Position numbers and translations under genes: made by a program. DNA of 64,000 nucleotides from Candidatus Azambacteria bacterium (GTDB lineage: Bacteria > Patescibacteriota > Minisyncoccia > UBA10092), in contig DMPO01000006.1 in assembly GCA_003455995.1 (NCBI GenBank), positions 38,397-102,396 of the forward strand. The letters run 5' to 3'. Of the stretch, positions 20,237 to 52,886 are shown piece after piece. Position 1 is the stretch's first letter; each line of letters opens with the position of its first letter. Below the pieces are notes generated by a model. It did no database searches and was not told the origin of the DNA. It was given only the letters and a program-made list of their open reading frames with translations.

Positions 20237-20284
20237 GATCGAAATCTAAAAAGTTGTTTAACATTTTTTAAAGGAGGGGAGTTG

Positions 20285-20737
20285 ATGAAGTTGATGAAAA
20301 AGAAAGCAAATGAAAGCGTAATAGGGTATGCCTATGTTTGCGCCGATTTATTGCATGCCGGTCACCTTGATCATTTGGAGTTCTGTAAAAAATTTTGCGA
20401 TAAATTGATAGTGGGGGTTCTTACCGATAATGCGGTAATGGAAAAAAAGCCAAGACCAATTTTTGGTTTTGAAGAACGATTGCGGCTGGTTCAGGCCTTG
20501 AAGTGCGTGGATATTGCCGTACCTCAAGAAACCTACTCGCCGCTTAATAACGCGCCCGTTATGGCGGATATTTTATTTGAAAGCGCCGATCATGGAGAAG
20601 GGGCGCTTGAAGAAGCGAAACGGGTTATGAGGGATATAGGCAAAAAGGTAATTGTTGACATATTTCGCCCTCGTCACAATAGACGACCGTCAAGCACCGC
20701 GATTAAGACCAAAATCAAAAAAGAGTGGCAAAAATAA
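20285..20737 (+). CDS. HIGH-family cytidylyltransferase (TagD-like; also resembles the CTP-transferase domain fused to PEP mutases)
   Basis: 'ADLLHAGH' (HxGH), 'LIVGVLTD', 'EER..LV..LK.VD', C-terminal 'SST.I'. Confidence 0.8.
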   Translation: MKLMKKKANESVIGYAYVCADLLHAGHLDHLEFCKKFCDKLIVGVLTDNAVMEKKPRPIFGFEERLRLVQALKCVDIAVPQETYSPLNNAPVMADILFESADHGEGALEEAKRVMRDIGKKVIVDIFRPRHNRRPSSTAIKTKIKKEWQK

Positions 20738-20756
20738 ATAATGGAGGTTTTGTTAG

Positions 20757-21992
20757 ATGGGGACAAGCATGCAAAAGTGGCAGAAAAGGATTTTATTTAT
20801 TTCGTGGATTACCTATGCCAGTTTTTATTTGTTAAGAGTTAACATTGCCGTGGCGATTCCCGGAATTTTGAGTGAATTTGGCATTTCAAAGACCGCCATG
20901 GGCGGAGTATTGACGGCCTTATTCGCGGCTTATGCCTTCGGGCAATTTGTAAACGGTACCATGGGGGATAAATTTGGAGCCAGGAGGATGGTAACAATTG
21001 GTTTACTGTCATCTGCTATTCTGAATATTGTCTTTGGGTTTACCCAGGGTTTTCTAATTGCGATGGTGGCTGTTTGGGGATTAAATGGTTTTTTCCAAGC
21101 CATGGGCTGGGGTCCGATTGTGAAAACAGTGGCTTGTTGGTTTCCGCCTCAAAAGAGGGGAATGGCCTCGGGTATTTTGGGGACTTCCTACATTCTGGGC
21201 AGTTCCATTTCTTTGCTTTTGGCCGGTTTTATCGCGGGTCATTTTGGCTGGCGCTGGGTTTTTTGGTTTCCCGCCATCATTACTATTATCGGCGCGCTTC
21301 ATTGGGCGCTAAGAATCAGAAATGGTTGTGAGAACGAAGGATTTGAGACCGTCGAGAGAATTGACGCGGCGTTAAAATATGCGGGCATTAAACATTCTCT
21401 CGGCATAATTCTTAAAGATAAAAAAGTATGGTTTGCTAGTTTATGTTTATTTGGTCTTAATATCGTGCGTTATGGTTTTTTAGATTGGGCTCCGACTTAT
21501 TTTTTCGAGGTTCAAAAAGCGAGTATTTCCATAGCCGCTTACAAAACCTTGATTTTTCCCATAGCGGGCGCGGTCGGCGCTTTAAGTTCCGGTTGGCTTG
21601 CCGAAAAAGTGTTTAAACAAAAAAAGGCGATAGTAGCCGCTATTATGTTGCTGATGTTGGCGGCAGCGATTTGGTTTTTTGTTAAAATTCCCGTCGGGAA
21701 TTGGGTTTTGAGCCTTGTTGTTTTAGCTATTATCGGTTTTTTGACTTTCGGTCCCCACATGATGATAGTGACTATTTTGCCGATGGATTTAGGCACAAAA
21801 GAGCGGGCATCATCCGTTGCCGGGTTCATAGACGGCTGGGGGTATATTGGCGCCGCCTTGACGGGCGTGGGGACGGGATTTTTGTTGGATCATTTTGGCT
21901 GGCATACCGCTTTTTATTTTTGGATATCGGGCGCGATTATTGCCGCCGCGTCGGTGGGGTATGTAATGGCGAGTTTAAAGAAAAAAATTTGA
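20757..21992 (+). CDS. MFS transporter, GlpT/UhpT (organophosphate:Pi antiporter) family
   Basis: ~12 TMs; 'Y..FY..R.N', 'W.LNG.FQ.MGW', 'WFP...RG', 'VRYG..DW.PTY', 'G..D..GY.G'. Confidence 0.85.
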   Translation: MGTSMQKWQKRILFISWITYASFYLLRVNIAVAIPGILSEFGISKTAMGGVLTALFAAYAFGQFVNGTMGDKFGARRMVTIGLLSSAILNIVFGFTQGFLIAMVAVWGLNGFFQAMGWGPIVKTVACWFPPQKRGMASGILGTSYILGSSISLLLAGFIAGHFGWRWVFWFPAIITIIGALHWALRIRNGCENEGFETVERIDAALKYAGIKHSLGIILKDKKVWFASLCLFGLNIVRYGFLDWAPTYFFEVQKASISIAAYKTLIFPIAGAVGALSSGWLAEKVFKQKKAIVAAIMLLMLAAAIWFFVKIPVGNWVLSLVVLAIIGFLTFGPHMMIVTILPMDLGTKERASSVAGFIDGWGYIGAALTGVGTGFLLDHFGWHTAFYFWISGAIIAAASVGYVMASLKKKI

Positions 21993-22005
21993 TTGATTTA
22001 TTCAG

Positions 22006-22040
22006 AAACCTCGATATCAATATCGAGGTTTTATTTTTTT
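22006..22040 (+). terminator. Intrinsic terminator
   Basis: aaacctcgatat-ca-atatcgaggttt perfect inverted repeat followed by a T-rich tract, just after the MFS stop. Confidence 0.8.
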
Positions 22041-22084
22041 AGGTTGATTTTTAGAAAAAATAGATATATAACAATGTAAACTCC

Positions 22085-23395
22085 ATGCATGAGAATAAAC
22101 AAATTATCATAGACGGCTGGCGCGTTTATGATTTGCCGGTTGAATATAGCGACGCCGATTATGAAGAAGCGCGGGTTGAAATAACCAATCAAGTCCGCAA
22201 TACCCCGGGGCTTATCGCCTTGTTTGAATATGGCTGTATTCCTTTTCCCGGAATATCGGATATGGATTTTTGGGCGGTATTTTCGGATGATGCGGGAAAA
22301 ATGGGGCTTCCTTTACAACCTGCGCTTTCCGAAAAAACCAAATATTTAATGAGCCACCAAATCACGCTTTTTGCGGAAAAACATTATCGAAAAATGCTTT
22401 ACTTTGATCCTTGGACGACTTATGCCTGGCCCAATGGCCAAAGATTATTATATAAATCGGATGGTATTGAAAGGGATTTAAATTTTGAAAATATAAAATT
22501 TACCAAAGAGGAAAGAGATATTTTGAGCTTAGTTCTTGTTGAAGAATACTTGGGGTCGATAAATTCAACAATTTCCTTTTACGCCAAAAAAAAGTTGCCT
22601 GTGAGGCATATTCTGGAAACAATTAAAACCTGCGTTTATATCATTGAAGAAATCAATCTTATTACCGACAGAAAAATCAATTCTACTTTTCCGGAAGAAC
22701 TCAAAGATTTGAGATCCAAATGGTTTAAGATTGACCGGCAAGAAGCCGTAAAAAAACTAATAAAATTATTTTACGACGGATTACTTATCAGTTTTGAAGC
22801 CGCTTTTTCTTTGAGCAATTGGGCCAGTCGGCGTTCCGAATGGCTTCGTATTTCGGACTTGGGGGTGGAAAGAATAAATTTTTTAAACCATTTTTGTTTA
22901 GATAAAAAAGCCAAAAATATTTATCTTAACATTTTTAACGACTGGCGGGTTTTTACCGATTTCGCGCGCACTCCAGCGCAAGCATTGGAATTATCGATTA
23001 ATTCCTGCCGGGAAGTTGAAATAAAATTAGGACGATACTCCAAAGTGATTGATTTTTGCGTCGTTTTTCAACCGCTGGAATTGGCCGCTATTTATTTGGG
23101 TTTTATTTCCGAAAAAGGCTTATTGAGCGATAATTTGAGAAAAAACACTTTCAGCAATTTAGAAGAAGCACCGGTCTTCCGGCCCAAAATATTTCAGGAA
23201 AAAATAAAAATGATAAATGAGATCATTGAAATTTATAATAATAAACGGGTTGCGGATACAAGCGGGAAAGGATGGCATTTCGGAAACGGCAGTTTCCAAA
23301 ATTCTTTTGAACATAAAACGATTAAAAAGAAAATTTTGGTTTTTTGGCTTAAACAAAAATTTTGGCGCGCCATAAACGCGGCGATAAAAATTTAA
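22085..23395 (+). CDS. Hypothetical protein with N-terminal nucleotidyltransferase (Pol-beta fold)-like motif
   Basis: 'LFEYGCIPFPGISDMDFWAV' fits hG[GS/C]x~8DhD; remainder unrecognised. Confidence 0.5.
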   Translation: MHENKQIIIDGWRVYDLPVEYSDADYEEARVEITNQVRNTPGLIALFEYGCIPFPGISDMDFWAVFSDDAGKMGLPLQPALSEKTKYLMSHQITLFAEKHYRKMLYFDPWTTYAWPNGQRLLYKSDGIERDLNFENIKFTKEERDILSLVLVEEYLGSINSTISFYAKKKLPVRHILETIKTCVYIIEEINLITDRKINSTFPEELKDLRSKWFKIDRQEAVKKLIKLFYDGLLISFEAAFSLSNWASRRSEWLRISDLGVERINFLNHFCLDKKAKNIYLNIFNDWRVFTDFARTPAQALELSINSCREVEIKLGRYSKVIDFCVVFQPLELAAIYLGFISEKGLLSDNLRKNTFSNLEEAPVFRPKIFQEKIKMINEIIEIYNNKRVADTSGKGWHFGNGSFQNSFEHKTIKKKILVFWLKQKFWRAINAAIKI

Positions 23396-24798: not shown

Positions 24799-26043
24799 AT
24801 GATGAAAATCATCATCTTGTCGGATTATTTTGATAATCGCGGAGGAGCCGTCAGTATCGCTAAAACAATGGCTTACGGCTTCAAACAAATGGGCCATAAT
24901 GTCGGCGTGATTACTACAGTCCAAGACAAGGCGCTCGCGGGCCAAAAAATAATTGATGGAGTTAAAATATGGTCTGTTTATTCCAATTATAATCTTTTTT
25001 GGCGCGCTTATCGCAGTTTATACAATCCCCAGACCGTAAAACATATCGCGAAAATTATTGAAGAAATAAAACCGGATGTGGTTCACGCCAATAATATCCA
25101 TGTCCACCTTTCATACCACGCCCTGAAAATTGCCCAAAAAAGCGGGGCCAGAGTATTTTTGACCGCTCACGATGTCATGCCTTTTCATTATGGTAAATTG
25201 ACAGAATTTATAAACCCGAATAATTTATCCTGTCCCGAAAAATTCAATTACAAAATCAGCGTTTGGCGGCAAATAAAAAGAGCGGGCAAAACCTATAACC
25301 CTTTTCGTAATTTAATCATTAGATATTATCTTGAATATGTCGATAAAATTTTTGCCGTTAGCGGCGCGTTGAAAAACGCGCTTAATGACAATGGAATAAA
25401 AAATGTTGAAGTAATTCATAACGGCATTGATGTTTCGGCATGGGCAGTAAACGAAGCGGCCATAGAAGTTTTCAAAGAGAAGCATAATATTCGAAACAAA
25501 AAGGTTGTTTTGTTTGGCGGACGCCTTGGTTGGCTGAAAGGAGGGCGTGAAATTTGCTTGGCGATGAAAAAGGTGATTGAAACAATACCCAACGCGGTTC
25601 TTTTGCTTGCCGGAAAAATAGACGAAGAAGTTAAAGAAATTCTTGATTTTGCCGACAAACTGGGAATTAACAAAAATATTATTGCCGCCGGCTGGCTTTC
25701 GGGTGGCGAGCTTAAAGCCGCCTATAATGTCGCGGATATCGTGACGGCGCCGTCGATTTGTTTCGATTCTTTTCCGACCGTAAATTTGGAAGCGATGGCT
25801 TGCAAAAAGCCGGTTATCGCCACCTGTTTTGGCGGAAGCCGCGAAGCGGTAATAGACGGCGAAACCGGCTATATCGTAAATCCGTTTAACATAGATAAGT
25901 TAGCAGATAAAATAATATATCTATTAAAAAATTCTGAAGTTGCCAGAAAATTCGGCGAAGCGGGGTATGAGAGGGTGAAAAAAGAATTCAGTTCGGAAAA
26001 AATGATCGGTGATTATTTAAATTGGTACGGAAAAATTTTTTAA
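24799..26043 (+). CDS. GT4 glycosyltransferase
   Basis: 'T.HD', 'IHNGID', 'GRL...KG', 'DSFPTVNLEAMAC.KPVI'. Confidence 0.9.
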   Translation: MMKIIILSDYFDNRGGAVSIAKTMAYGFKQMGHNVGVITTVQDKALAGQKIIDGVKIWSVYSNYNLFWRAYRSLYNPQTVKHIAKIIEEIKPDVVHANNIHVHLSYHALKIAQKSGARVFLTAHDVMPFHYGKLTEFINPNNLSCPEKFNYKISVWRQIKRAGKTYNPFRNLIIRYYLEYVDKIFAVSGALKNALNDNGIKNVEVIHNGIDVSAWAVNEAAIEVFKEKHNIRNKKVVLFGGRLGWLKGGREICLAMKKVIETIPNAVLLLAGKIDEEVKEILDFADKLGINKNIIAAGWLSGGELKAAYNVADIVTAPSICFDSFPTVNLEAMACKKPVIATCFGGSREAVIDGETGYIVNPFNIDKLADKIIYLLKNSEVARKFGEAGYERVKKEFSSEKMIGDYLNWYGKIF

Positions 26044-27416
26044 TGAAAACTATTTTTATTACCGCTTATCATCCTTTTATCTCCAAAAACATTCTTAATA
26101 CGAATGTGTTTGGCATTTTGAAACAAAGAAAAAATTTAAGAATCATTCTTTTAGTTCCGGTTATTTTGAAAGATTTTTTTGAAAACAATTACCGTTTCGA
26201 CAATGTAGTGATTGAGAGTATCGATCTGGCGCCATTCTCAAAATCCCGCCTCAGCAATTTTTTTTCAAGAGCCGCTTTCTTTTTTACTTACAATCACTGG
26301 ATTAGATATAAAAGGATGGAATATTTAAATGCCCATTGGAGTTTTTATAACCTCGTGAAATTTCGTGTTTTTATGGTATTAACGCGAATTTTATCTGGGC
26401 ATAAAATTTTAAATAAAATTTTCAGATTTTTTGACTGGCGTTATTCGCCCAATAATTTTTATAAAGATTATTTTGAAAAATACAAACCCGATATTGTTTT
26501 TTCAACCGATGTTTATGACGATTTTGACCAGGCGCTGATTAAAGAAGCGAAAATAAGAAAGATCTTTGTTATCGGCATGATCCGCTCCTGGGATAATAAT
26601 ATCAGTAAAGGACTAATGAGATGCTTTCCGGATAAATTAATTGTTAATAATGAGGTAATTAAGAAAGAGGCGATAAAACTTCATAATTATCCAGAAGGAA
26701 ATATTTTCATCGGCGGCCTGCCGCAGTTTGACGATTATCTTAAGGCGCCTTTCAAAAGCCGAGAAGAGTTTTTCGAGTCGGCGGGCGGAGATCCCGAAAA
26801 AAGAACGGTTTTATTTTCACCCGGCAGCCGGGGAATTTCCGCGGATGCCAATATTATTATTTGCGAAGCGTTTAAAGCCGCAAAGGAAAGTGGTGATTTG
26901 CCCAAAGATATTCAATTTTTTATCAGAAACCATCCCACCAGGCCAGATAGGGCGCTGGAAAAATTCAAAAATGATTCCGATTTTATTATCGAAATGCCAG
27001 GAAAAATTAAAAATAGCGGGAAATTTCTCGAATTTTCACTTCAAGACAATCGCCATCTTATAGATACCATATATTATTCCGATGTTGTCGTCTGGATTGT
27101 AACCTCGATAGGACTGGACTCTTTAGTTTTTGATAAGCCGCAAATCGTAGTTGATTTTGACGGCCTTGAAAATAAGTCATACTGGTTAAGCGTCAAGCGG
27201 TTCAATGACGAAGAACACATGCTTTTATTCTTTGAAACAGGAGCCGTAAAAATAGCCGATAATTTGGAAAATTTAATTGTTTATATTAAAGAATATCTTG
27301 AAAATCCCTCCATTGATCGCGAAGGAAGAAAAAAAGCCGCTTTGCAACAGCTTTGGAAGGCGGATGGAAAATCAAGCGAAAGAATCGCAAATTTCATTTT
27401 ATCATTCCTTTTTTAA
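26043..27416 (+). CDS. GT-B-fold transferase ('SWDN..KG' family); candidate ulosonate transferase or CDP-glycerol glycerophosphotransferase
   Basis: 'KPDIVF', 'RSWDNNISKG', 'G.PQFD.Y', 'RNHP', 'TSI.LD....DKP'; start at ATG 26043. Confidence 0.6.
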   Translation: MKTIFITAYHPFISKNILNTNVFGILKQRKNLRIILLVPVILKDFFENNYRFDNVVIESIDLAPFSKSRLSNFFSRAAFFFTYNHWIRYKRMEYLNAHWSFYNLVKFRVFMVLTRILSGHKILNKIFRFFDWRYSPNNFYKDYFEKYKPDIVFSTDVYDDFDQALIKEAKIRKIFVIGMIRSWDNNISKGLMRCFPDKLIVNNEVIKKEAIKLHNYPEGNIFIGGLPQFDDYLKAPFKSREEFFESAGGDPEKRTVLFSPGSRGISADANIIICEAFKAAKESGDLPKDIQFFIRNHPTRPDRALEKFKNDSDFIIEMPGKIKNSGKFLEFSLQDNRHLIDTIYYSDVVVWIVTSIGLDSLVFDKPQIVVDFDGLENKSYWLSVKRFNDEEHMLLFFETGAVKIADNLENLIVYIKEYLENPSIDREGRKKAALQQLWKADGKSSERIANFILSFLF

Positions 27417-28131
27417 GCTGGCGGAATTTATTTTCCATTTTCTCCCAGTCGGAAGGAATGTTGATGTCTTCATCGTAAAAATCGCTGACAATATAGGGCT
27501 CTTGCTTCTCGCCGCCGAAATAGCAGGGATTTTTTCCGTACAAAATTTTTGGCTTCAAAACAAAAACCAGATCATTTTTGACATAATATTTTGGCAGGAG
27601 CTGGCGGCGCGCCGGAGCGTATTTTACATTCTGGCCTATGGCGTTTAACAGTTCATAACTGTTGCCCCTTTTTACAGGCTGGACAATCCAATAAGGATGA
27701 TGATGGGCGGCCGATAATTCGGAAAGAGGGATCACCACATCTGGGTCTTTTTTCAAAAACAGTTCTATCGCCTCGTCAACCTGTTTAACGTTTCTTAAAG
27801 AATTGGGAGGCATCAGCAAGACGATGGCGTCGGTTTTATAATTTTCATATTTTTTCAGCCATTCTATGGCGTGCCTTAACACCGGCTCCATTTGCGTCGC
27901 GCTCCCGGCTAATTTTTTGGGGCGCAAAAAGGGCGTTTCGGCGCCGTATTTTTTTGCCACTTTGGCTATTTCGGGGCTATCGGTGGAAACAATGGTCCGG
28001 TTTATAAGAGGGCTTTTCAGAGCCGTCTCAATAGCCCAGGCAATCAACGGTTTACCGCAGAAATTTCTTATATTTTTTCCGGGAACCCCTTTTGAATCGC
28101 CCCGGGCAGGCACAATCGCCACGATTTTCAT
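27394..28131 (-). CDS. neuA: Acylneuraminate (CMP-ulosonate) cytidylyltransferase
   Basis: 'IVPARG.SKG.P.KNI', 'GKPLI.W', 'VSTDS', 'PFLRP..LA', 'DI....DW'. Confidence 0.9.
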   Translation of the reverse strand: MKIVAIVPARGDSKGVPGKNIRNFCGKPLIAWAIETALKSPLINRTIVSTDSPEIAKVAKKYGAETPFLRPKKLAGSATQMEPVLRHAIEWLKKYENYKTDAIVLLMPPNSLRNVKQVDEAIELFLKKDPDVVIPLSELSAAHHHPYWIVQPVKRGNSYELLNAIGQNVKYAPARRQLLPKYYVKNDLVFVLKPKILYGKNPCYFGGEKQEPYIVSDFYDEDINIPSDWEKMENKFRQLKKGMIK

Positions 28132-28154
28132 AATTTATGAAATAACATAAAATT

Positions 28155-28186
28155 AAAAATCCCGCAACGAACGCGGGATTGTTTTT
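28155..28186 (-). terminator. Intrinsic terminator-like hairpin after the radical SAM gene
   Basis: aatcccgc-aacgaac-gcgggatt flanked by A and T tracts, so it could act in both directions. Confidence 0.65.
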
Positions 28187-29847
28187 TACATTTCCAAAAT
28201 TTTATATATGTCGCCAGAATCAATGTATCCTCTGGCCTTGACGAAAATATCATCCGGCATGTCGCTGTAATTCAGCGGCTCGCCGGTCTTGGAATTGCGC
28301 AAAACCTTTGTGGCGTCATCCAGCTCCAAAATATACCGGCGCAGGTTTTCATCGCAAACCGGCTCGCCGACAAAATCAAAAGTAATTCCGAAAACTTCAC
28401 GCAGAATTTTTTGAACCTTGGATTGGTGGCCCATTTCCGTTCCCGGATACCAGGTGGCGGTGAACATTTTCTTGTTTACCGAGTCGGCGGACTTGCCGCG
28501 CGTACCATAAAATATCTCTTGCCACTCGATAAAAGCGACGCTCATTTTTAGGTCCTCAAGGGTCTCGGTTGGGTATCCCATTATCCAGGTGCAATTAGCG
28601 TGAATGCCGGCATTTTCGCAATCTATAACGCCCTCTATCATAGAGCTGGGGAATTCGCAAAATTTTCCATTGGCAATAATACCCTTAATCCCTTTTTTGA
28701 GAATAAATCCGCCTTTATTCATCGCTTTCAGGACTTTCGGCGAGGCGCTTTCGGCGCCGAAGCCGATATAAATGCATCCGGCTTCCGCCATTAAATTAAA
28801 TCCCTTTGATTCATCGAGGCGCGCGTGCGTCCCCCAGCGGATATTTAGCGGCTTAAGAAGGGGGACTAAATCAATGATTCTTTTATGGTCGATGGCGAAA
28901 TTATCGTCCACCATCCCAATGAAATCAACTCCATATTTTTCAATATGCATTCTGAATTCCTTGGCAAGATTTTGCGCTGATCGCGCGCCGTAATTTTTTT
29001 CGCCTTGCGCGCCGCGATAGCAGAAAGCGCAATTATACGGACAGCCCCGCGAAGAAACAAAGTTCGTGCTCCGATTCATCGTGAATGAAGCCGCTGAACT
29101 GTTGTTGGCGGAAGCGCCCCAAATTGGATTGCAGATATAGTATTCCAGAATCTTATTGCCAAAAACATCTTCTTTTAGAAAATCCAAATCGGCGAAAGGA
29201 ATGCAGTCCAAATCCCGCGGTCGGTCGCCTTCGTAAACGAAGCGATGCCGGCCGAATATTTCTCCTTTGCCGACTATCGAACCCAAATAATAGGGTTCCA
29301 ATTTTCCGGAATTAATCGCCCGCAAAAAACCCGTTTTTTTGAGAATTCTCGCGTCGTGGGCGGCTTTGACGATTACATCGTCGCCTTCGGAACGGACTAT
29401 GCCGTCCAGGTCGGGGATGTAATTGAAAAGCCCCGCTCTCAATTCGGTGGCGAGGCCGCCGCCGGAAACAAGAAAAACGATCGGCGCCAATTTGCGAACC
29501 ATTTTAGCGACTTTTTCCTGCCAGCGCAATGTGGTGATCATTCCCGAAAGGCCGACCAGATCCGGCTCGCCATGAACTTCAAAATGTTTTTTTATCAGTT
29601 CAAAAACTTCCTGTTCGGTAAGGTGCCGGCCGTTTATTCGATAGCCGTTCAAATCAACTATCGAAACATTAACCTCATAGTTATCGCGCAAATTAGTTGC
29701 CAGAAGCAGGGGGCCTTGGGGCGTGTTGTTTGGCGCCGCCGCTTCTCTTAAAGGCATATTGATAAAAACAACATTTAAGCCGCGCAGATCGGCCGGTTTG
29801 ATATCTTTGATGATATCCGCCGGGTGAATATAATCGCAACTTTTCAT
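28186..29847 (-). CDS. Cobalamin (B12)-binding radical SAM protein (class B methyltransferase-like)
   Basis: N-terminal B12-binding-type domain ('P.G....A', 'PDLVGLS', 'SGG', 'SEGD'); 'SSRGCPYNCAFC'; 'DDNF', 'G.ES', 'IMGYP.ET'; SD GGAGGAG. Confidence 0.88.
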   Translation of the reverse strand: MKSCDYIHPADIIKDIKPADLRGLNVVFINMPLREAAAPNNTPQGPLLLATNLRDNYEVNVSIVDLNGYRINGRHLTEQEVFELIKKHFEVHGEPDLVGLSGMITTLRWQEKVAKMVRKLAPIVFLVSGGGLATELRAGLFNYIPDLDGIVRSEGDDVIVKAAHDARILKKTGFLRAINSGKLEPYYLGSIVGKGEIFGRHRFVYEGDRPRDLDCIPFADLDFLKEDVFGNKILEYYICNPIWGASANNSSAASFTMNRSTNFVSSRGCPYNCAFCYRGAQGEKNYGARSAQNLAKEFRMHIEKYGVDFIGMVDDNFAIDHKRIIDLVPLLKPLNIRWGTHARLDESKGFNLMAEAGCIYIGFGAESASPKVLKAMNKGGFILKKGIKGIIANGKFCEFPSSMIEGVIDCENAGIHANCTWIMGYPTETLEDLKMSVAFIEWQEIFYGTRGKSADSVNKKMFTATWYPGTEMGHQSKVQKILREVFGITFDFVGEPVCDENLRRYILELDDATKVLRNSKTGEPLNYSDMPDDIFVKARGYIDSGDIYKILEM

Positions 29848-29872
29848 AACTCTCCTCCGTTTTATTGTTAGA

Positions 29873-30026
29873 TGTCAAAGACCGCTTTAATTGACGGAAA
29901 CGGTATCATAAAATTAAATCTTTGACAAGGCGATTATTTTATGGTAATTTTCAGTGTCAAAATTTCCCGAACTTTAACAACAACCACCCTTCGGGTGGCC
30001 ACCCGTAGGGGTGGAAAATTAGGAGG
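29873..30026. promoter_or_regulatory. Overlapping divergent promoters with boxA-like leaders and a tandem hairpin
   Basis: Plus strand: TTGACA(29922)-17-TAATTT with extended TG. Minus strand: TTGTCA-17-TACCGT(29905-29900). Leader motifs GAACTTTAACA (+29969-29979) and GGTCTTTGACA (-29883-29873). Hairpins at 29984-30014; SD AGGAGG at 30021. Confidence 0.65.
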
Positions 30027-30032
30027 TTAAAA

Positions 30033-30911
30033 ATGAAAAAAATTGGATTCATTGGGTTGGGGACTATGGGTTTGCGGATGGTGCAGAGATTGCTTTCCGC
30101 CGGGTATAAGCTGACGGTATATAACCGGACGGCGGAAAAAGCGAACGCGCTGGTGGATAACGGCGCGCGATTTGCCGTCAATCCGAGGCAACTCGCGGAG
30201 CGTTCCGATGTAATTATTACAATGGTCAGTGATGGTCGGGCTGTTCGCGATGTTGCCGAGGGCGTATGGGGGGCATTTTCAGTAGCACAGCGGGGAACGG
30301 TTTTTATTGACTGCAGTACCATTTCGGTCGGGACAACCAAATATCTCGCTTTGAGAGCGGAAAATTTGGGATGCTATTGGCTGGACGCGCCGGCGCTTGG
30401 AGGCCCAGCGGCGGCTGAAGCCGGAGAATTGTCGTTCGTCGTTGGCGGGCCAAAAAATATTCTAGATGAAAATATAGAGATTTTTAACGCCCTCGGCAGA
30501 GTTACTTGGATGGGGGAGTGCGGCATGGGCCAGGCGGCCAAAATTGTCCATAATATGGCCTGCGGCATATCGTTAGCGGCATTCAGCGAAGCGATTATTC
30601 TGGGCGAAAAACTTGGTCTGGAAAGAAAACAAACGATAGAGACGCTATTAAACGGCGCGGTTGGAAGTCCTTTATTAAAGGTGAAGGCGCCTAAATTTGA
30701 AGAAAATGATTTTGAACCCGCTTTTGCGTTAACTATGATGTTAAAGGATTTAACCTTGGCGGAAGACGCCGCCAAAGAATCGGAACTGTTTCTCCCGGCG
30801 CTTTCGGCGGTCAAAAAGCTCTACAATTTAGCGAGAATACGCGGATTTGGCGACGAGGACTCGTCGGCCGTTATTAAAGCGTTTCAATTTTTGACGGAGG
30901 TGAAGCGATGA
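30033..30911 (+). CDS. Beta-hydroxyacid dehydrogenase (3-hydroxyisobutyrate dehydrogenase/tartronate semialdehyde reductase family)
   Basis: 'IGFIGLG.MG', 'VYNRT', 'D.STI', 'DAP..GG...A', 'G.GQ.AK..HN', 'KDL.LA'. Confidence 0.9.
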   Translation: MKKIGFIGLGTMGLRMVQRLLSAGYKLTVYNRTAEKANALVDNGARFAVNPRQLAERSDVIITMVSDGRAVRDVAEGVWGAFSVAQRGTVFIDCSTISVGTTKYLALRAENLGCYWLDAPALGGPAAAEAGELSFVVGGPKNILDENIEIFNALGRVTWMGECGMGQAAKIVHNMACGISLAAFSEAIILGEKLGLERKQTIETLLNGAVGSPLLKVKAPKFEENDFEPAFALTMMLKDLTLAEDAAKESELFLPALSAVKKLYNLARIRGFGDEDSSAVIKAFQFLTEVKR

Positions 30912-32836
30912 ATGGCGCGGTGATAAAGATTATCCCCCAGTCGGAATTTGTCCGCGTTTGGCAAACAGGCGCAAATTTTTACGCTACGCTCTCTTTGATT
31001 GCCGACATGTGCCGCCTGAACGCGCTTTCGGCGGTTAAACGCGCCGGTTCCGGCCATCTTGGTTCCAGTTTCAGCGCGATGGATATTGTAACATATCTTT
31101 ATTGGTGGGAGATGAATACGATTCGGAAGGGCTTTGATAATCCGAATCGCGATATCTATTTTTCGTCAAAGGGACACGATGTTCCGGGGTTATACGCCGC
31201 GCTTTTTTCGCTTGGTATAATTTCGGAGGAACTTTTTCTGAAACTGCGCCGTCTCGGCGGCCTTCACGGCCATCCGGATATAAACAATTTAGGTATTGAG
31301 GCCAATTCTGGGTCGTTGGGAATGGGAATTTCCAAGGGCCGCGGAATGGCTTGGGCTAAAGAATATTTGGGATTGTCCGGACGAGTTTTCGTGATGACCG
31401 GCGATGGTGAGTTCCAGGAAGGGCAGAATTACGAGGCGCTTCAGGGAGCGGCGCAGTTAATGCAGGATCGCTTAATTGTGGTTATGGACCACAACAAGGT
31501 CCAAAGCGATAAATTGGTCAAAGAAATAGTTGACTTGGGCGATCTTGAAGCGAAGTTCTCGTCATTCGGTTGGTATGTTGAGCGTTGCAACGGCCATGAT
31601 TTTAAGGCGCTTGAAAAAACTTTCGCCAGAATCGATAAAATTACACAAAAACCAAAAATAATAATTGCCAACACAATCAAGGGCAAGGGCGTTTCTTTTA
31701 TGGAACACCCATATGCTCTTAAAGAAAATGGCATATATAAATGGCACGCCGGAGCGCCGGATGACGATTCTTACAAGGTAGCGTTTAAAGAATTGTTTGA
31801 AAAAATTAACACGCGGCTTGCAAAACTATTTTTGGATTCAATCACTACCAAAGAGGTGTGTGATGAAAAAGAGCCGGTCAATCAGAAAAAAGTATCCGGC
31901 GAATATATTGCCGATTCTTACGGCAAGGCGCTTGTGGCATTGGCCGCCGAGCGGGACGATTTCGTGGTATTGGACGCCGATTTGGCGGCGGATTGCCGAT
32001 TGCGCGATTTTGAAAAACAATTTCCGGAACGGTTTATCGAATGCGGCATCGCCGAGCAGGATATGGTGTCCATGGCCGGCGGCTTGGCGCGGCAGGGGAT
32101 TCTCCCGATTGTAAATTCCTTTGGAGCGTTTCTGTCATCGCGCGCCAATGAGCAAATTTACACCAACGCTTGCGAACGGTCCAAGATTATCTATGTTTGC
32201 CATTATGCCGGCCTCATTCCGGCCGGACCGGGAAAATCGCATCAGTGTCTTCGGGATGTCTCATTGTTCGGCGCGTTGCCGGATATGACTATCATTCAGC
32301 CATGCAATGCATGGGAGACGCGGCAGGCGCTTAATTATTGCGTCAATTTTACGGCCAACAGTTCTATGTTGCGTCTCAATATTGGTCCTTCTCCGCGCGT
32401 AATTGAGTTGCTGGCAGAATATGCTTTCACAAAAGGCATAGGCGCTGAACTGACAAAAGGGGAAGACGCGATTCTTTTCGCGTATGGGCCGGTGATGCTC
32501 AATGAAGCGCTTGCCGCTTCGGAGATATTGGCGAAAAAAGGATTTGGATTAAAAGTTGTCAATATGCCGTGGCTGAATTCAGTGGATGTTGAATGGTTAA
32601 GAGCGGTTTTAGGTCCGACTAAAAAAATATTCGTACTGGAAGACCACAATATAATCGGCGGTTTAGGAGATTTTCTGTTAAATCAATTTGTCACCAATAA
32701 ACTTTTGGAAGGGAAGACGTTCCGAAAATTCGGGATAACCGGATTGCCGGCCTGCGGCCGACCTGATGAAGTATTGAAATTTCACGGCCTTGATGGCGCA
32801 ACGTTTGCGAAAAAATCCAACAATAAGGAGGAATGA
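30908..32836 (+). CDS. Single-chain transketolase-like TPP enzyme
   Basis: 'GSGH.GSS.S', 'SKGH', 'GSLG.G', TPP motif 'GDGE.QEG...N', 'GIAEQ.MV', 'SHQ', 'EDH...GGLG'. Confidence 0.88.
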   Translation: MNGAVIKIIPQSEFVRVWQTGANFYATLSLIADMCRLNALSAVKRAGSGHLGSSFSAMDIVTYLYWWEMNTIRKGFDNPNRDIYFSSKGHDVPGLYAALFSLGIISEELFLKLRRLGGLHGHPDINNLGIEANSGSLGMGISKGRGMAWAKEYLGLSGRVFVMTGDGEFQEGQNYEALQGAAQLMQDRLIVVMDHNKVQSDKLVKEIVDLGDLEAKFSSFGWYVERCNGHDFKALEKTFARIDKITQKPKIIIANTIKGKGVSFMEHPYALKENGIYKWHAGAPDDDSYKVAFKELFEKINTRLAKLFLDSITTKEVCDEKEPVNQKKVSGEYIADSYGKALVALAAERDDFVVLDADLAADCRLRDFEKQFPERFIECGIAEQDMVSMAGGLARQGILPIVNSFGAFLSSRANEQIYTNACERSKIIYVCHYAGLIPAGPGKSHQCLRDVSLFGALPDMTIIQPCNAWETRQALNYCVNFTANSSMLRLNIGPSPRVIELLAEYAFTKGIGAELTKGEDAILFAYGPVMLNEALAASEILAKKGFGLKVVNMPWLNSVDVEWLRAVLGPTKKIFVLEDHNIIGGLGDFLLNQFVTNKLLEGKTFRKFGITGLPACGRPDEVLKFHGLDGATFAKKSNNKEE

Positions 32837-32840
32837 AGAT

Positions 32841-33347
32841 ATGGATTTTGAGTTGCTTGAAAAATTGCGAAAAATAAAACTTTTGGTGCTTGATTGCGAC
32901 GGCGTTCTGACTGACAGCTATGTCTATGTGAACAATGATGGCAATGAATTTTGTCGGTTTAGCCATCGCGATGGCAAGGGGATTCAACTGATTCGGGAAG
33001 CGGGGATTGAAGTGGCGATAATAACAAGCCAGAAAAGCCCCTATGTTAAAAAAAGATGCGATAAGATGGGCGTTGAATTTCACCAAGCCATTACGAACAA
33101 ACTAAGAAATCTTGGTGATATGCTTGAAGACAAAAAGATGCGTTTTCAAGAAGTTTGTTTTGTCGGCGACGATGTTAGCGACATCGCGGTAATGAATAAT
33201 GTCGGTTTGCCCATAGCGGTAGCCGATGCCGAAGAAGAAGTAAAAAAAATCACCGCATATATTACTAAAAGAAAAGGCGGCGAGCACGCCGTTCGCGAAG
33301 TTTGCAATCTGATTTTGGAAGCAAGAAGGTGTCGTAATGAATTCTGA
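32841..33347 (+). CDS. KdsC/YrbI-family HAD phosphatase (Kdo-8-P/Kdn-9-P phosphatase-like)
   Basis: 'LDCDGVLTD', 'F..RDG.GI', 'GDD..D', 'GG..AVRE'; start at ATG 32841 after SD AAGGAGG. Confidence 0.88.
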   Translation: MDFELLEKLRKIKLLVLDCDGVLTDSYVYVNNDGNEFCRFSHRDGKGIQLIREAGIEVAIITSQKSPYVKKRCDKMGVEFHQAITNKLRNLGDMLEDKKMRFQEVCFVGDDVSDIAVMNNVGLPIAVADAEEEVKKITAYITKRKGGEHAVREVCNLILEARRCRNEF

Positions 33348-34155
33348 AGCGTATAAAATGTTCTCGGTAGAGAACAAAGTGATTGTCATTACCGGCGGCG
33401 CCGGATTTCTTGGGATGCAATTTGCCAAAGCGTTAGGTTTGGCCGGCGCCCAGATTGTGATTTGGGACAATTGTGATTTCAGTTTTCTGCAATCGCAAGC
33501 CGTCTTGTTGAGGCAAAAAAATATCAAGTGCATTGCCCAAGATGTTGATTTAACGGATATGGTAGTAGTTAACAAAATGGCAAATTCGGTTATTGAAAAA
33601 TTTGACCGCATTGATGTTCTTATCAACAACGCCGCGCTCAATCCGGCTGTTGACAGCGCCGAAGCCGAGCAAATGTTCTCGCCTTACGAAAAATATCCCG
33701 TTGATCTGTTCAAGAAGGAGGTAGAAGTGGATTTGATTGGAACGCATCTTTGCATTCAGGCGGCGGCGCCGCAAATGATAAAGCGAAGATCGGGGGTGAT
33801 TTTAAATATCTCCTCCGAATACGCCAATATTGCCGCCGACAATCGAATCTACGGCGAAGGTCAGTTCAAGTCCATCGCCTATATTGCCGCCAAAAGTGGA
33901 GTTCTCGGACTCACTCGAGGCTGGGCGTCTTATCTGGGAGAGTATGGCGTTCGCGTTAACGCTTTTACTCCCGGTGGCATGCCCAAGCCGGAAGTGTCGG
34001 AAGAATTCCGACGAAAATATTCTTCACTAAATATGCTGGGGCGGACGGCAAATCCCGGAGAATATGACGGCGCGATTTTGTTCTTGTGTTCCGACGCTTC
34101 CTCATTTATGACCGGCAATCAGCTTGTCATGGATGGCGGCAAAAGCGCATGGTGA
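33337..34155 (+). CDS. Short-chain dehydrogenase/reductase (classical SDR)
   Basis: 'ITGGAG.LG', 'NNAA', YIAAK, 'RVN...PGG', 'SFMTG..L..DGG'. Confidence 0.9.
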   Translation: MNSEAYKMFSVENKVIVITGGAGFLGMQFAKALGLAGAQIVIWDNCDFSFLQSQAVLLRQKNIKCIAQDVDLTDMVVVNKMANSVIEKFDRIDVLINNAALNPAVDSAEAEQMFSPYEKYPVDLFKKEVEVDLIGTHLCIQAAAPQMIKRRSGVILNISSEYANIAADNRIYGEGQFKSIAYIAAKSGVLGLTRGWASYLGEYGVRVNAFTPGGMPKPEVSEEFRRKYSSLNMLGRTANPGEYDGAILFLCSDASSFMTGNQLVMDGGKSAW

Positions 34156-34169
34156 GAGAAGGAGGGCAT

Positions 34170-35042
34170 ATGGTAAAAATAGAAAACATATTTGTCGGAG
34201 ACGACCACCCATGTTTTATAGTCGCCGAAATCGGAATCAATCATAATGGCAGTTTGGAAATTGCCAAAAAGATGATTGATTTGGCGGCCGAATCCGGCTG
34301 CGATGCCGTGAAATTTCAAAAACGGACGCCGGATTTATGCGTTCCCGACGAACAGAAAAATATGATGTACGAAACCCCTTGGGGGTTGATACCGTATATC
34401 GAATACCGGCATAAGATTGAATTCGGGCAGAAGGGATATGAACAAATTGATGATTATTGCCGGAGGAAAGGAATCATGTGGTTCGCTTCCTGTTGGGACG
34501 AAGATAGCGTCGATTTTATCGAAAAGTTCGATCCTCCTTGCTACAAAATCGGCTCGGCGTCTTTAACCGACAGAAATCTTTTGCTCCATACTCGGTTTAA
34601 AAACAAGCCCGTTATTCTTTCAACGGGGATGAGCACGATGGAGCAGGTTTATGGCGCAGTTGATACTTTGGGGAGAGAGGACTTAATCCTCTTGCACTGT
34701 GTCGGGACTTATCCCGTGCCCGATCATGAAAATAATTTGAGGGTTATCAATACCCTGCGGGAAACATTTCCGGAAGTGCCGATTGGATACAGCGGGCATT
34801 GCCGCGGCACCACTTTGGGCGTTTGCGCCGTCGCCTTGGGCGCTTGCGTAGTAGAGAGGCACATCACGCTTGACCGCGAAATGTGGGGGTCCAATCAGGC
34901 GGCAAGCTTGGGGCCGGAGGGACTTAAGCTGATGGTCGGCAACATCCGCCGGCTGGAACTCGCTTTAGGCGACGGAGTCAAGAGAGTTTTAGAATCGGAG
35001 GTTCCTCTGATTATGAAGCTCCGCCGAAAAGTTGATTTTTGA
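34170..35042 (+). CDS. neuB: N-acetylneuraminate synthase family (NeuB/SpsE), short form without C-terminal SAF domain
   Basis: 'AEIGINHNG', 'DAVKFQKR', 'ILSTGM', 'LLHC..TYP', 'GYSGH', 'ERHITLDR'; start at ATG 34170 after SD. Confidence 0.92.
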   Translation: MVKIENIFVGDDHPCFIVAEIGINHNGSLEIAKKMIDLAAESGCDAVKFQKRTPDLCVPDEQKNMMYETPWGLIPYIEYRHKIEFGQKGYEQIDDYCRRKGIMWFASCWDEDSVDFIEKFDPPCYKIGSASLTDRNLLLHTRFKNKPVILSTGMSTMEQVYGAVDTLGREDLILLHCVGTYPVPDHENNLRVINTLRETFPEVPIGYSGHCRGTTLGVCAVALGACVVERHITLDREMWGSNQAASLGPEGLKLMVGNIRRLELALGDGVKRVLESEVPLIMKLRRKVDF

Positions 35043-35085: not shown

Positions 35086-35097
35086 AATTACGCCCCG

Positions 35098-36360
35098 TTA
35101 ACTAACGGGGCTTTTGAATTTCCAAAGCGCGATGCTTATAAAAAATATGATGATATAATAAATCACCTGCGCCAGAACTAATCCCAAAATGCCGCCCCAA
35201 ATGCCGAGCGCCACATACAAAATTATTTTGACAATACTGGAAGAGATACTGCTTGACGCGATGGCTCCGAACATTTTTTGGGAGTTGATGGCCGTTCCGA
35301 TATAGCCCACCGGAGCGATGAAAATAAAAGATAATGCCAAAATTTGAGAATAGAAAATTGAGTCAATATATTTGGGCAATAAATATTTAAATACTAAAGG
35401 CGATACTAAAATATATCCGACGGCGAGAAGCGCTCCCAAACCGATTGCCTGAAATATTCTTTTGTAAAAAACTTCGTCTATCTCCTCGGTATTTTTAACG
35501 GCAAGCTTGGGCAGTCCGAGATTTATGATGCTTTTTATAAACGGCCCGACTTTATCCGGAATTGCTCGCGCCAGAGAATACACCGCCAATGGCGCCGGAC
35601 CCCAAAAATGAACAAGAACGATGCTATCGGTTTGCGCCACAATCGGGCCGATGAATCCCAAAAGCGTCAGCCGGCGGCCGTATTTGACGACATCTCCGGC
35701 CGGCGCCAACGGCGGATTAAAAATCTGCAGTGTTTTCCAATAAAAAAATATATTGGCAATCAGAGTAGTTAAAGCGTAGGCGATAATAAGCGGCAATATT
35801 TCCTTGCTTAACAGCGTTGCCAGCAACATTCCGGCGGCGTATATGGCGGTTGAAAAAATACTGAATAAATTATTGATTTTAAATTGTTTTTTGCCGTCAA
35901 GATACGCGCCGTAGGTATTGAACGCGAAAGTCAGGGGTGTAAATATGCCAAAAATAAGGAAAGAAATCGCAAGAATTTGATTATCGTTTAGAAAATAATA
36001 ACCTCCCAATCCCCACATAGCGATTGCCATCATAACATTCCATTTCAACTGGTATCTGACGGAAGTTCTTAACGCCCCTTCATTGCCGGTGGCCGTGGCT
36101 TGGCTGACCGCCGCGTTCATTCCGGTCATGGTAAAAACATTGAATATGCCCGCCAAAGACAAAATATAGCGGTAAAATCCGTAGGTTTCTTTCGGAAGCA
36201 AATTCGCGAAAGCGATTATCAAAAGGAAGGAAATCGAGCTATTCATTCCTTGTCCGAAAGCCGTCCAAAAACCGCCGCCGGCGAAATATTTTAAATCCAA
36301 GCCAAAAAATTCGGTGCCATAGTTTATGAATTTATGGTAAATTTCTTTTTTACTTTCCAT
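35098..36360 (-). CDS. Oligosaccharide flippase (Wzx/MOP family)
   Basis: ~12 TMs; 'ANLL....YG.Y.Y..S', 'D.I.L.HF.G...LAVYS.A' pattern; downstream of a sugar transferase. Confidence 0.85.
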   Translation of the reverse strand: MESKKEIYHKFINYGTEFFGLDLKYFAGGGFWTAFGQGMNSSISFLLIIAFANLLPKETYGFYRYILSLAGIFNVFTMTGMNAAVSQATATGNEGALRTSVRYQLKWNVMMAIAMWGLGGYYFLNDNQILAISFLIFGIFTPLTFAFNTYGAYLDGKKQFKINNLFSIFSTAIYAAGMLLATLLSKEILPLIIAYALTTLIANIFFYWKTLQIFNPPLAPAGDVVKYGRRLTLLGFIGPIVAQTDSIVLVHFWGPAPLAVYSLARAIPDKVGPFIKSIINLGLPKLAVKNTEEIDEVFYKRIFQAIGLGALLAVGYILVSPLVFKYLLPKYIDSIFYSQILALSFIFIAPVGYIGTAINSQKMFGAIASSSISSSIVKIILYVALGIWGGILGLVLAQVIYYIIIFFISIALWKFKSPVS

Positions 36361-44786: not shown

Positions 44787-44809
44787 AAACCTAGGCGGAA
44801 GGCCTAGGT
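44785..44809 (-). terminator. Hairpin/terminator between convergent NUDIX and radical SAM genes
   Basis: acctaggc-ggaag-gcctaggt with an adjacent A tract (T tract on the minus strand). Confidence 0.6.
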
Positions 44810-46324
44810 CGGAACAGTTGAACGAAGAATATAAGGAGGGATTTTGCCTTTTGAAGCGTCGAAGGCGTTTTCGGGAACATCGGTTTGATATGGCTGGCCG
44901 AGCTTTTCCCTCAGTTCTCGTTCTGTGTCGTTTCGGAGGCGCCGCAAGTCGTCGGCCGAAAGCGTTTCGGTAAATGCGGAAACCTTTCCCAAACCCTTCC
45001 GGTCTCCCCGGTCGCCTTTGTAAAACATGAAGTCCGAAAAGTAGTCCGTCTCTCCGGAATAAAGCTTGTCGCCGGTTTTAGGCGCGCGATAAACCCAAAC
45101 ATCCTTACGGCCGAGGACGGGTTCGGCTTCATCGTAGTATGGCGTTCCGGGATAGACCGTGATTCGGGTAAGGTCAAACGATTCCGGTCGAACTTGCAGA
45201 ATAAAATCTTTTGTTTCTTTGATTGTTTTTTCGGTTTCTCCGGGATGGCCGATTGACATCAGGGCCTTAACGCGCAGGCCGTTTCGCCGGGCGGTTTCCG
45301 CGCATCTGTAATTGTCTTCAAGCGTTGCGCGCTTGTTGATGTTGCGAAGAATTCGCGGCGATCCCGATTCAAAACCGGTCAGAATTTCCCGGAAACCAGC
45401 TTCATACATCGCTGTGGCTTGGCGGTCATTAAATAACTCCGCCTTAATGAAGCCGCGCAGCCGCCACTTAATGTCCAATTCTTTGCCAAGGGATATGATG
45501 GCATTCATTAATCGGACCAAATTATCGCCGCCGATATTCAGTTCGTCATCGTAGAACATCGCGCCGCACTCTTGGGCCACTTTTTCTTTATAGGCCGTCT
45601 GCATAAACCGATATACTTCCCGCAGTTCGGCAATAACATTATCCGCGCTTCGGAAACGAAGCGTTCGGAGAAACGCCGTATTCCGCCCGCCGCAAAAACC
45701 GCATCCGAAAGGGCACCCCAGCTGGGCAATGACGCTCGTTGTCGGGGCCCCGTCAATTAAGTAGCGGTAACTGCCGAGATCAATTAAATCCCGCGCCGGA
45801 AAAGGCAAATTCTCTAATTCTTCTCGTTTCAGAAAAAGGCTGGAATTTCGATTGTCGGCGTCAATAATTTGGCCATGCTTCGCTTGAAAAATATCAAAAA
45901 CAGCTCGTTCTCCATCTCCTGCGACTAAAACATCAAAATAATCGAAGATGCGCCGCAATGCTCGGGTTGCCCTTCCGGCAATTTTCTTTTCGCGCTCCCG
46001 GCGATAAGCGGCGTTCACGAGCGTGCCGTGCGGTCCGCCCAAAACCAGCTTGGCCGATGGCCGCATGCGTCTGATGGTCTCGGCAATGAAGCCGCTTGCC
46101 GGAAGCTGGGGGCTTGTCGCCGTAATCCCAAAAATATCCGTATTGTTTTCTTGGCAGTATTGTCCAACAACTTCCAAGTAGCGAGCCACTCCGGATAAGT
46201 CAAGCAGGTCAACATCGATTTGATTTCTTCGCAGCATAGCCGCGACCTTTAAAATACCTAAATGCGGGATCATCCGATCGTCGGAAAGGATGAGCGATGA
46301 AGGAATAACCAGGCACATTTTCAT
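44804..46324 (-). CDS. Cobalamin (B12)-binding radical SAM protein
   Basis: 'P.LGIL..AA.L', 'GGPH.T', 'GDGE', 'P.PARDL', 'GCPFGCGFC', 'YDDE', 'GFESG', 'YPGT'; ATG 46324 follows SD GGAGGTG. Confidence 0.88.
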   Translation of the reverse strand: MKMCLVIPSSLILSDDRMIPHLGILKVAAMLRRNQIDVDLLDLSGVARYLEVVGQYCQENNTDIFGITATSPQLPASGFIAETIRRMRPSAKLVLGGPHGTLVNAAYRREREKKIAGRATRALRRIFDYFDVLVAGDGERAVFDIFQAKHGQIIDADNRNSSLFLKREELENLPFPARDLIDLGSYRYLIDGAPTTSVIAQLGCPFGCGFCGGRNTAFLRTLRFRSADNVIAELREVYRFMQTAYKEKVAQECGAMFYDDELNIGGDNLVRLMNAIISLGKELDIKWRLRGFIKAELFNDRQATAMYEAGFREILTGFESGSPRILRNINKRATLEDNYRCAETARRNGLRVKALMSIGHPGETEKTIKETKDFILQVRPESFDLTRITVYPGTPYYDEAEPVLGRKDVWVYRAPKTGDKLYSGETDYFSDFMFYKGDRGDRKGLGKVSAFTETLSADDLRRLRNDTERELREKLGQPYQTDVPENAFDASKGKIPPYILRSTVPT

Positions 46325-46374
46325 TGAGTCCACCTCCGTTAAATATTTTTTAGTGTTAAAGTTCTACCGTTAAG

Positions 46375-52874: not shown

Positions 52875-52886
52875 ATAAAAATTATT

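Follow-up and report, generated by a model that had tools for sequence, protein, structure and literature searches.

We analyzed a 64,000-nucleotide stretch of a Candidatus Azambacteria genome (assembly GCA_003455995.1, contig DMPO01000006.1, positions 38,397 to 102,396; hereafter the window), in which seven genes at 27394 to 35042 encode NeuA, NeuB and KdsC homologues together with a radical S-adenosylmethionine (SAM) enzyme, a transketolase (TK), a beta-hydroxyacid dehydrogenase and a short-chain dehydrogenase (SDR). In our judgment, there is an even chance that this island makes a nitrogen-free seven-carbon ulosonic acid: a nine-carbon acid of the Kdn (2-keto-3-deoxy-D-glycero-D-galacto-nononic acid) type would be built, its C8-C9 would be cut off, and the sugar would be transferred by way of cytidine monophosphate (CMP). 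An earlier, sequence-only reading of the region had proposed a nitrogen-free ulosonic acid pathway with Kdn logic, and gene content supports this proposal. No account of NeuB with a TK or with a radical SAM enzyme was found in the literature searched, which covered few subscription journals. The new part is the reductase-finished version of the TK cassette joined to a radical SAM gene, that is, a Kdn-type route with undescribed tailoring chemistry. The reactions and their order were inferred from the gene content, co-occurrence and residue changes that we observed, and trimming might come before or after CMP activation.

All seven open reading frames (ORFs) were present and intact. Profile searches gave the families named in the sequence-only reading in the same divergent arrangement, with the starts of kdsC and neuB corrected. 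The island is embedded in a long glycan locus, with a TagF-like transferase on one side and a flippase on the other:

26043..27416, plus strand: TagF-like (Glyphos_transf) glycosyltransferase (PF04464, E 6e-12), converging on neuA and lying outside the island as first drawn
27394..28131, minus strand: NeuA-type CMP-ulosonate synthetase (CTP_transf_3; PF02348, E 8e-24), below the PseF and KdsB cut-offs
28158..28180, minus strand: terminator-like hairpin with a T-run, in the gap from the radical SAM gene to neuA
28186..29847, minus strand: radical SAM enzyme with a cobalamin-type N-terminal domain (PF04055, PF02310)
29848..30032, no strand: divergent promoter region, with promoter-like sites and a repeated palindrome near 29983-30018
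30033..30911, plus strand: beta-hydroxyacid dehydrogenase (PF03446/PF14833), its stop overlapped by the TK start
30908..32836, plus strand: fused transketolase-family enzyme, assigned by profile, structure and residue comparison
32841..33347, plus strand: KdsC/YrbI-type haloacid dehalogenase (HAD) phosphatase (TIGR01670, 154 bits against a cut-off of 107), start moved from 32790
33337..34155, plus strand: PtmA-like SDR of the NAD type (PF13561)
34170..35042, plus strand: short NeuB synthase of 290 amino acids (aa) without a SAF domain (PF03102, E 1e-76), start moved from 34086
35092..35111, plus strand: terminator-like hairpin at the close of the right arm, where the convergent flippase gene also ends
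35098-36360, minus strand: flippase gene, convergent with the right arm

In the proposed pathway, NeuB would join phosphoenolpyruvate (PEP) to hexose 6-phosphate, and the KdsC-type enzyme would dephosphorylate the product, freeing the C9 hydroxyl. The NAD-type SDR would oxidize C8 to give the ketol tail HOCH2-CO-CHOH, from which the TK, devoid of its phosphate site, would remove C8-C9, and the NADPH-type dehydrogenase would reduce the new C7 aldehyde. After activation with CMP by NeuA, the sugar would be passed to a surface glycan by the TagF-like enzyme, likely a CMP-ulosonate transferase. The radical SAM enzyme would be a separate module altering the part of the sugar that survives trimming, C-methylation being likelier than dehydration.

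The combination of a NeuB synthase, a HAD phosphatase and a CMP synthetase without NeuC or an amino-sugar supply matches the Kdn-9-phosphate pathway. The host genome measures 576 kb and is 94% complete, and its closest named homologues belong to Ca. Azambacteria and Parcubacteria; NeuC, a DegT aminotransferase and the aldehyde dehydrogenase (ALDH) family were not found in it. Together with the lack of any acetyltransferase among the 59 window ORFs scanned, this bears out the absences claimed earlier, as the profile results do the pairing of a short, SAF-less NeuB with a KdsC-like phosphatase. The absence of NeuC and of a DegT aminotransferase, and the scores of the synthase, which lie below the NeuB and PseI cut-offs, depart from what is expected for N-acetylneuraminic, legionaminic or pseudaminic acid. 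The phosphatase reached 116.9 bits against a cut-off of 180 for the Kdn-9-phosphate phosphatase equivalog and was also below the KdsC equivalog cut-off, and our NeuB tree included no characterized Kdn-9-phosphate synthase. The known Kdn-9-phosphate route to CMP-Kdn consists of a synthase, a phosphatase and a CMP synthetase of Bacteroides thetaiotaomicron. The island shares these three activities and the lack of NeuC and aminotransferase; it differs in adding an SDR, a remodelled TK, a beta-hydroxyacid dehydrogenase and a radical SAM enzyme, and in its SAF-less NeuB.

Oxidoreductases have been added to nonulosonate pathways before. ElaB, of the elaABC module, is an SDR. Both elaABC and Campylobacter PtmA/PtmF change C8, and the window SDR scores as PtmA-like; these systems keep nine carbons, whereas in the island a TK follows the SDR. 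In the accessible part of the report on elaABC, the 8-epilegionaminic acid module of Acinetobacter baumannii, ElaA is described as a putative oxidoreductase (PMC9676051). As to terminal aldehydes, the sister cassettes described below share a class III aminotransferase with a further known system. This is the KdnA/KdnB pathway of Shewanella to Kdo8N (8-amino-3,8-dideoxy-D-manno-octulosonic acid), in which this type of aminotransferase acts on the terminal aldehyde of a ulosonic acid; it loses no carbon and has no TK.

We then compared the TK with canonical enzymes. Its best solved relatives were human TK and Carboxydothermus TK, and it shares with canonical TKs (E. coli TktA, human TKT and the split Carboxydothermus TK, 6yaj/6yak) the three-domain fold, the thiamine diphosphate (ThDP)-binding motif and the catalytic His and Glu set. 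His50, His90, His122, Asp166 and His280 (195/195 homologues), Glu383 (194/195) and His445 (193/195) are kept. In contrast, the canonical phosphate-binding Arg, Ser, His and Arg and also Asp469 are replaced across the family of the window TK: E. coli Arg358, Ser385, His461, Asp469 and Arg520 correspond to Ala335, Asp362, Tyr433, Pro441 and Ile492, with Pro441 and Asp362 each found in 193/195 homologues. Because the E. coli pairwise alignment is gapped near the substrate sites, we based this mapping on the alignments with human TK and 6yaj, which are closer. All five residues are kept in the controls, namely, the genome's own TK on contig C9 and PDB 6yaj. His461 is a sugar-phosphate residue, and Asp469 binds the C4 hydroxyl of the donor. 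According to the accessible parts of three studies, Ser385 contacts the substrate phosphate (PMC5073344), donors need a C1 hydroxyl, which His100 and His473 hold (10.1101/719906), and specificity moves towards non-natural aldehydes when Arg358, Ser385, Asp469 and Arg520 are changed (PMC7661550); the accessible part of a fourth (PMC12531865) contained nothing on phosphorylated substrates. The counterparts of His100 and His473 are both kept. Since the phosphate residues are lost and the holders of the C1 hydroxyl remain, the enzyme should accept a phosphate-free hydroxymethyl ketone, and we predict that it is a tail-cleaving TK with a rebuilt substrate site. By textbook stereochemistry, the tail of 8-oxo-Kdn is D-threo, as in fructose; with the ring oxygen as the fourth position of this tail, Asp469 would not be needed. 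The protein scored 175 bits on the dxs model (cut-off, 466) and keeps the His100 equivalent; its modelled domain packing is DXS-like (template modeling [TM] score, 0.7), although a monomer prediction cannot settle packing.

The genome contains three TK-like systems. One of them, a split TK in a carbon-metabolism cluster of the window (52026-53882), has two substrate positions altered in its C-terminal half, His to Gln and Asp to Tyr; it failed as a canonical control, and the C9 copy was used instead.

The genes found beside the TK point to the kind of product that it makes. Three scans gave 80, 18 and 3 loci, pooled to 101; L157 and L227 are the same contig, kin are not independent, and locus counts overstate the number of events. 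Of these loci, 66 had NeuA, 52 the SDR, 50 NeuB, 42 a TagF-like gene, 27 KdsC and 3 a close radical SAM gene. The TK was accompanied by an ALDH in 55 loci, a class III aminotransferase in 4 and the window-type dehydrogenase in 3, never by two of them together; among the 50 NeuB-bearing loci, 44 had one of the three partners and 43 had the SDR. All three partner families act on terminal aldehydes, and the partner ALDH scored best on the alpha-ketoglutaric semialdehyde dehydrogenase model. ALDHs normally work one way. Oxidation, amination and reduction would be three fates of one aldehyde and, with the ALDH reaction being one-way, the TK probably generates the aldehyde that the partner enzyme uses.

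The TK stood without a cassette in 17 of the first 80 loci, 13 of which form one Ignavibacteria clade. A housekeeping role for these lone TKs was rejected for the five of the 13 that were tested: in all five genomes, a canonical TK and a NeuA-aminotransferase-SDR-KdsC-NeuB cassette lie at other places. Among partnerless loci, L100 has a ketopantoate-reductase-like gene in the usual place of the ALDH, and L222 and L233 have a Gfo/Idh/MocA gene. A galactonate-dehydratase-like gene of the enolase superfamily was seen in 17 TK loci, mostly of Actinomycetota and 9 of them with an ALDH in view (L095, L100, L105, L109-L112, L114-L117, L119, L128, L150, L151, L156 and L084). Finally, NeuB-SDR-TK genes of Streptomyces sp. 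NBC_01237 (L245:6553-17407) occur with an RmlD-like reductase, a HAD protein and a class III aminotransferase beside hydroxyphenylglycine-type genes; possibly, this cluster provides a peptide natural product with an unusual amino acid.

These data bear on two other roles for the TK. In the sequence-only reading, TK and the two oxidoreductases were to make a non-standard aldose phosphate for condensation with PEP by NeuB. Conversion of a ketose to an aldose by two redox steps (SDR and dehydrogenase) is chemically possible, and NeuB-KdsC-NeuA fits a phosphorylated substrate. However, the lost phosphate site of the TK and the usual ALDH partner, which would oxidize and so destroy the aldose, leave this route unsupported; moreover, NeuB proteins of two distant clades occur with the same TK, and a canonical TK is already present in the genome. 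We consider this route very unlikely. Of the branched or chain-length-variant product proposed with it, a chain-length variant probably stands, and its build-up through an aldose phosphate does not. Alternatively, the SDR could make a ketone or aldehyde on the ulosonate, to which the TK would add a glycolyl group from a donor without phosphate, e.g., hydroxypyruvate, with the dehydrogenase reducing the branch. ThDP enzymes such as YerE do add C2 branches to keto-sugars. From the accessible parts of the sources, His122 and His445 would suit a hydroxypyruvate donor (10.1101/719906), and loss of the Asp469 position would give room for unusual acceptors (PMC5073344, PMC7661550). Yet no donor-supplying gene is conserved in the loci, and the commonest partner, the ALDH, would have no substrate in a glycolyl branch unless an isomerase intervened, so that branching seems unlikely, if less so than the aldose phosphate.

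For tail cleavage, the two oxidoreductases should have opposite roles. The SDR family has an Asp after strand 2 in 53/61 sequences and YxxxK in 60/61, and its relatives in TK loci score best on PRK09186. The dehydrogenase belongs to a small dedicated subfamily (among the proteins listed, 42 are at 51% identity or more, and the next is at 44%) with Asn31 in 35/36 members and Arg32, Lys170 and Cys177 in 36/36. Leu122 is also present in 36/36, against Ser or Thr in 76/78 generic matches (DAPVSGG-type motif), and the protein reached 211 bits where the tartronate semialdehyde reductase/3-hydroxyisobutyrate dehydrogenase equivalog requires 341. By the rule that distinguishes NAD- from NADPH-type residues, the motifs of the two enzymes fit oxidation followed by reduction; we thus predict a C8 dehydrogenase for the SDR and an NADPH-type aldehyde reductase for the dehydrogenase. 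Moreover, the window SDR groups (98) with SDRs of TK-less loci, in a clade found solely in radical SAM loci (7/7 rows), and 3 of 4 TK-less loci with a related SDR carry a xylose-isomerase-fold, ketose 3-epimerase-like gene instead of the TK. This sharing of the SDR suggests that both partner types use a ketose tail.

Several observations weigh against the tail-cutting pathway. No mannose-6-phosphate isomerase scored above cut-off in the genome, and the hexose is thus a presumed one. KdsC is present in just 25/50 NeuB-bearing TK loci, and NeuC occurs in four TK loci (L222, L223, L225 and L233), so that the module is not restricted to nitrogen-free sugars. None of the three partners was in view in 39/101 TK loci (many truncated, and 13 being the lone-TK clade) or in 6/50 NeuB-bearing ones. 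The dehydrogenase subfamily occurs in 1/401 phylum genomes, that of the window, and this variant is one clade in one family, statistically inseparable from the radical SAM gene. An aldehyde-finishing enzyme is missing from eight phage cassettes (L183-185, L187, L188, L208, L212 and L215), which have NeuB, SDR, NeuA and a short TK. The C2 unit that the TK would release has no evident acceptor, and the nearest solved relatives of the dehydrogenase are glyoxylate/semialdehyde reductases, which could clear that fragment instead. The last three points are those expected if, after the same cleavage, the dehydrogenase (elsewhere the ALDH) cleared glycolaldehyde and the C7 end was finished by the SDR or a host enzyme. 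We hold this to be improbable: the dehydrogenase is a dedicated subfamily with invariant residues of its own, an aminotransferase would be an odd means of removing glycolaldehyde, and the acid-sugar enolase-family genes suit a new sugar carboxylate.

The phage cassettes were read gene by gene in 14 loci (L182-L190, L194, L208, L211, L212 and L215) out of 40 viral TK loci, none of which is in the 101-locus count. Their short TK (340-440 aa) occurs with an FkbM methyltransferase among phage head genes (in L211 in part), after a terminase-like ORF and before portal-, protease- and capsid-like ORFs; gene roles were read from sequence, and only the FkbM gene was scanned. The cassettes suggest a role in decorating virion or host glycans. 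The radical SAM protein gave no match to viral sequences, and the dehydrogenase alignment gave five distant ones, which were not used.

The radical SAM enzyme has the class B layout, with an N-terminal B12-type domain (29.9 bits against a cut-off of 32.1, and 33 bits, above it, in a repeat scan) and a CxxxCxxC domain. It belongs to a tight family of 1221 matches, the best 120 of which are at 52% identity or more, and the motif is present in 120/120 of those listed; all NCBIfam scores were far below cut-off. Its model (predicted local distance difference test score, 88) matched TsrM, AprD4, OxsB and TokK to a similar degree, with E-values that lie within three orders of magnitude of one another. 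Domain order and fold are shared with TsrM, TokK, CysS, OxsB and AprD4 (TM score, 0.50-0.62), which have only 13-17% identity to the window protein, include methylases, a ring contractor and a dehydratase, and in no case act on a ulosonic acid. Methylation is the commonest reaction of the family. We have moderate confidence that the window enzyme methylates and regard dehydration as a lesser possibility. The C-methylation proposed earlier is possible, although the fold match is as good for a sugar diol dehydratase as for methylases. In a further alternative, the enzyme would be an AprD4-like diol dehydratase with the SDR or dehydrogenase as its reductase, giving a deoxy sugar, and the TK would act on the radical-made ketone or be incidental. 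AprD4, a sugar diol dehydratase, ranked second in the fold search; in addition, the SDR clade is confined to radical SAM loci, and the dehydrogenase was seen solely where the radical SAM gene is present. On the other hand, a close radical SAM gene is missing from 98/101 TK loci, and the TK thus does not depend on it; the dehydrogenase is coupled to the TK, being absent from 13/13 TK-less radical SAM loci; and the SDR motif is of the NAD type. Altogether, we find this scheme decidedly improbable. Two homologues of about 915 aa (P0077 and P0103) carry a LAGLIDADG domain (PF14528), which likely reflects inteins. At 44804-46333, the window has another B12-type radical SAM gene, which is unrelated to the first (about 25% identity) and adjoins NUDIX and nucleotidyltransferase genes.

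Co-occurrence with neuAB elsewhere, on which the sequence-only reading had staked its case, was found for both the TK and the radical SAM gene. The seven genes are, however, no single conserved unit: the island consists of two modules, a NeuB-SDR-TK-NeuA(-KdsC) cassette, which is widespread in many phyla and phages, and a radical SAM gene with NeuA/NeuB. In the class sample (the same 401 genomes, searched for both families), the radical SAM family was found in 11 genomes and the TK family in 22. Six genomes had both. In four of them (that of the window, G005, G007 and G008, all of one family) the two genes are adjacent, in G312 they are separated by about 34 kb, and in G389 they lie on different contigs; only the window and three genomes of one family showed the full combination. 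Entries recurring in the homologue lists of all three proteins hint at five further copies of the joined form. A NeuB or CMP-synthetase-family gene is present in 14, and a TK in 3, of 16 other loci that have a close radical SAM gene; the two without the former are L006, which is cut short, and L179, where about 9 kb of sequence around the gene show no neu gene. The radical SAM gene is thus likely a separate, predicted cobalamin-type module for ulosonate tailoring. Scanning metagenomes with the alignment of radical SAM proteins relied on generic patterns, and only 6/80 loci were of the true family; the other 74 were excluded from all counts.

Close relatives keep the divergent layout and have the right arm exchanged, for an epimerase-like gene, SDR, aldo-keto reductase and NeuB in G006 and for KdsC, SDR, a methyltransferase and NeuB in G001. 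NeuA is 85-88% identical in three relatives with TK and dehydrogenase versus 48-55% in four TK-less radical SAM loci; it is 53-55% where close relatives lack the TK arm, even in a same-genus genome with flanking genes at 75-83%. Similarly, the TagF-like glycosyltransferase is 71-76% identical in the former versus 59-61% in TK-less relatives, whereas the radical SAM protein is 66-72% identical in both. NeuA and the glycosyltransferase thus track the TK arm and the radical SAM protein does not, indicating that a different arm means a different activated sugar; the part of the sugar on which the radical enzyme acts is likely common to all arms. In trees, the window TK nests among ALDH-type TKs of other phyla, apart from other class members, and the window NeuB groups with the short synthases found in aminotransferase cassettes, the SAF-bearing clade being that of the ALDH cassettes. 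From these placements, a TK arm appears to have been acquired by a radical SAM cassette to form the island.

The sequence-only reading had also placed all seven genes around one bidirectional promoter region. Divergent promoter-like sites were indeed found at 29848-30032: the strongest, at 29960-29933 (minus; 11/12 matches), faces the radical SAM gene, and TTGACA at 29922-29927 (plus), facing the dehydrogenase, is kept in 3/3 relatives. There were 17 sites in all versus 12.2 expected by chance. However, this region may not serve all seven genes, because the predicted terminator-like hairpin precedes neuA; the assignment is only partly secure. The same hairpin occurs in L173, and a different one in L172. 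This hairpin, like L179 with its radical SAM gene apart from neu genes, could mean that NeuB, KdsC and NeuA give plain Kdn and that the other four genes serve something else. Given that TK and SDR are tightly linked to neuAB across phyla and that NeuA changes in sequence with the TK arm, we would be surprised if this were so.

As claimed earlier, most genes have strong ribosome sites (five of seven; weak for the SDR and none for neuA) and exceed the flanking glycosyltransferase genes in GC content (0.42-0.50 versus 0.35 for the TagF-like gene and 0.40 for GT4; genome, 0.416). GC content as a sign of foreign origin was rejected, since other, ordinary window genes reach 0.45-0.51. The palindromic element at 29983-30018 (27-36 bp) resembles repetitive extragenic palindromes and has six other sites in the genome (C7, C1, C3 three times and C12). 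Upstream, at 20282-23395 of the window, lie a small cytidylyltransferase-like gene, a major facilitator superfamily transporter and a 436-aa ORF without a Pfam match, the last being kept at 72-82% in two relatives.

Taken together, we tentatively propose, as a rather doubtful extension, that the product in this lineage is a C-methylated 3-deoxy-heptulosonic acid, made with the help of cobalamin radical methylation and without an example or pathway on record, and that tail-cutting TKs give C7 analogues (acid, amine or alcohol) in bacteria and phages. The carbon chain stays intact in the known modifications of sialic-acid-like sugars; a chain-shortening enzyme, if confirmed, would add a C7 class. 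It would also explain a TK family of at least several thousand proteins annotated as housekeeping or as a synthase of 1-deoxy-D-xylulose 5-phosphate, provide a biocatalyst for non-phosphorylated ketols and offer a testable model for the origin of heptulosaric acids, and radical modification of a ulosonate would be new chemistry. Finally, the swapping of the right arm among close relatives suggests fast surface-glycan change in these host-attached ultra-small bacteria.

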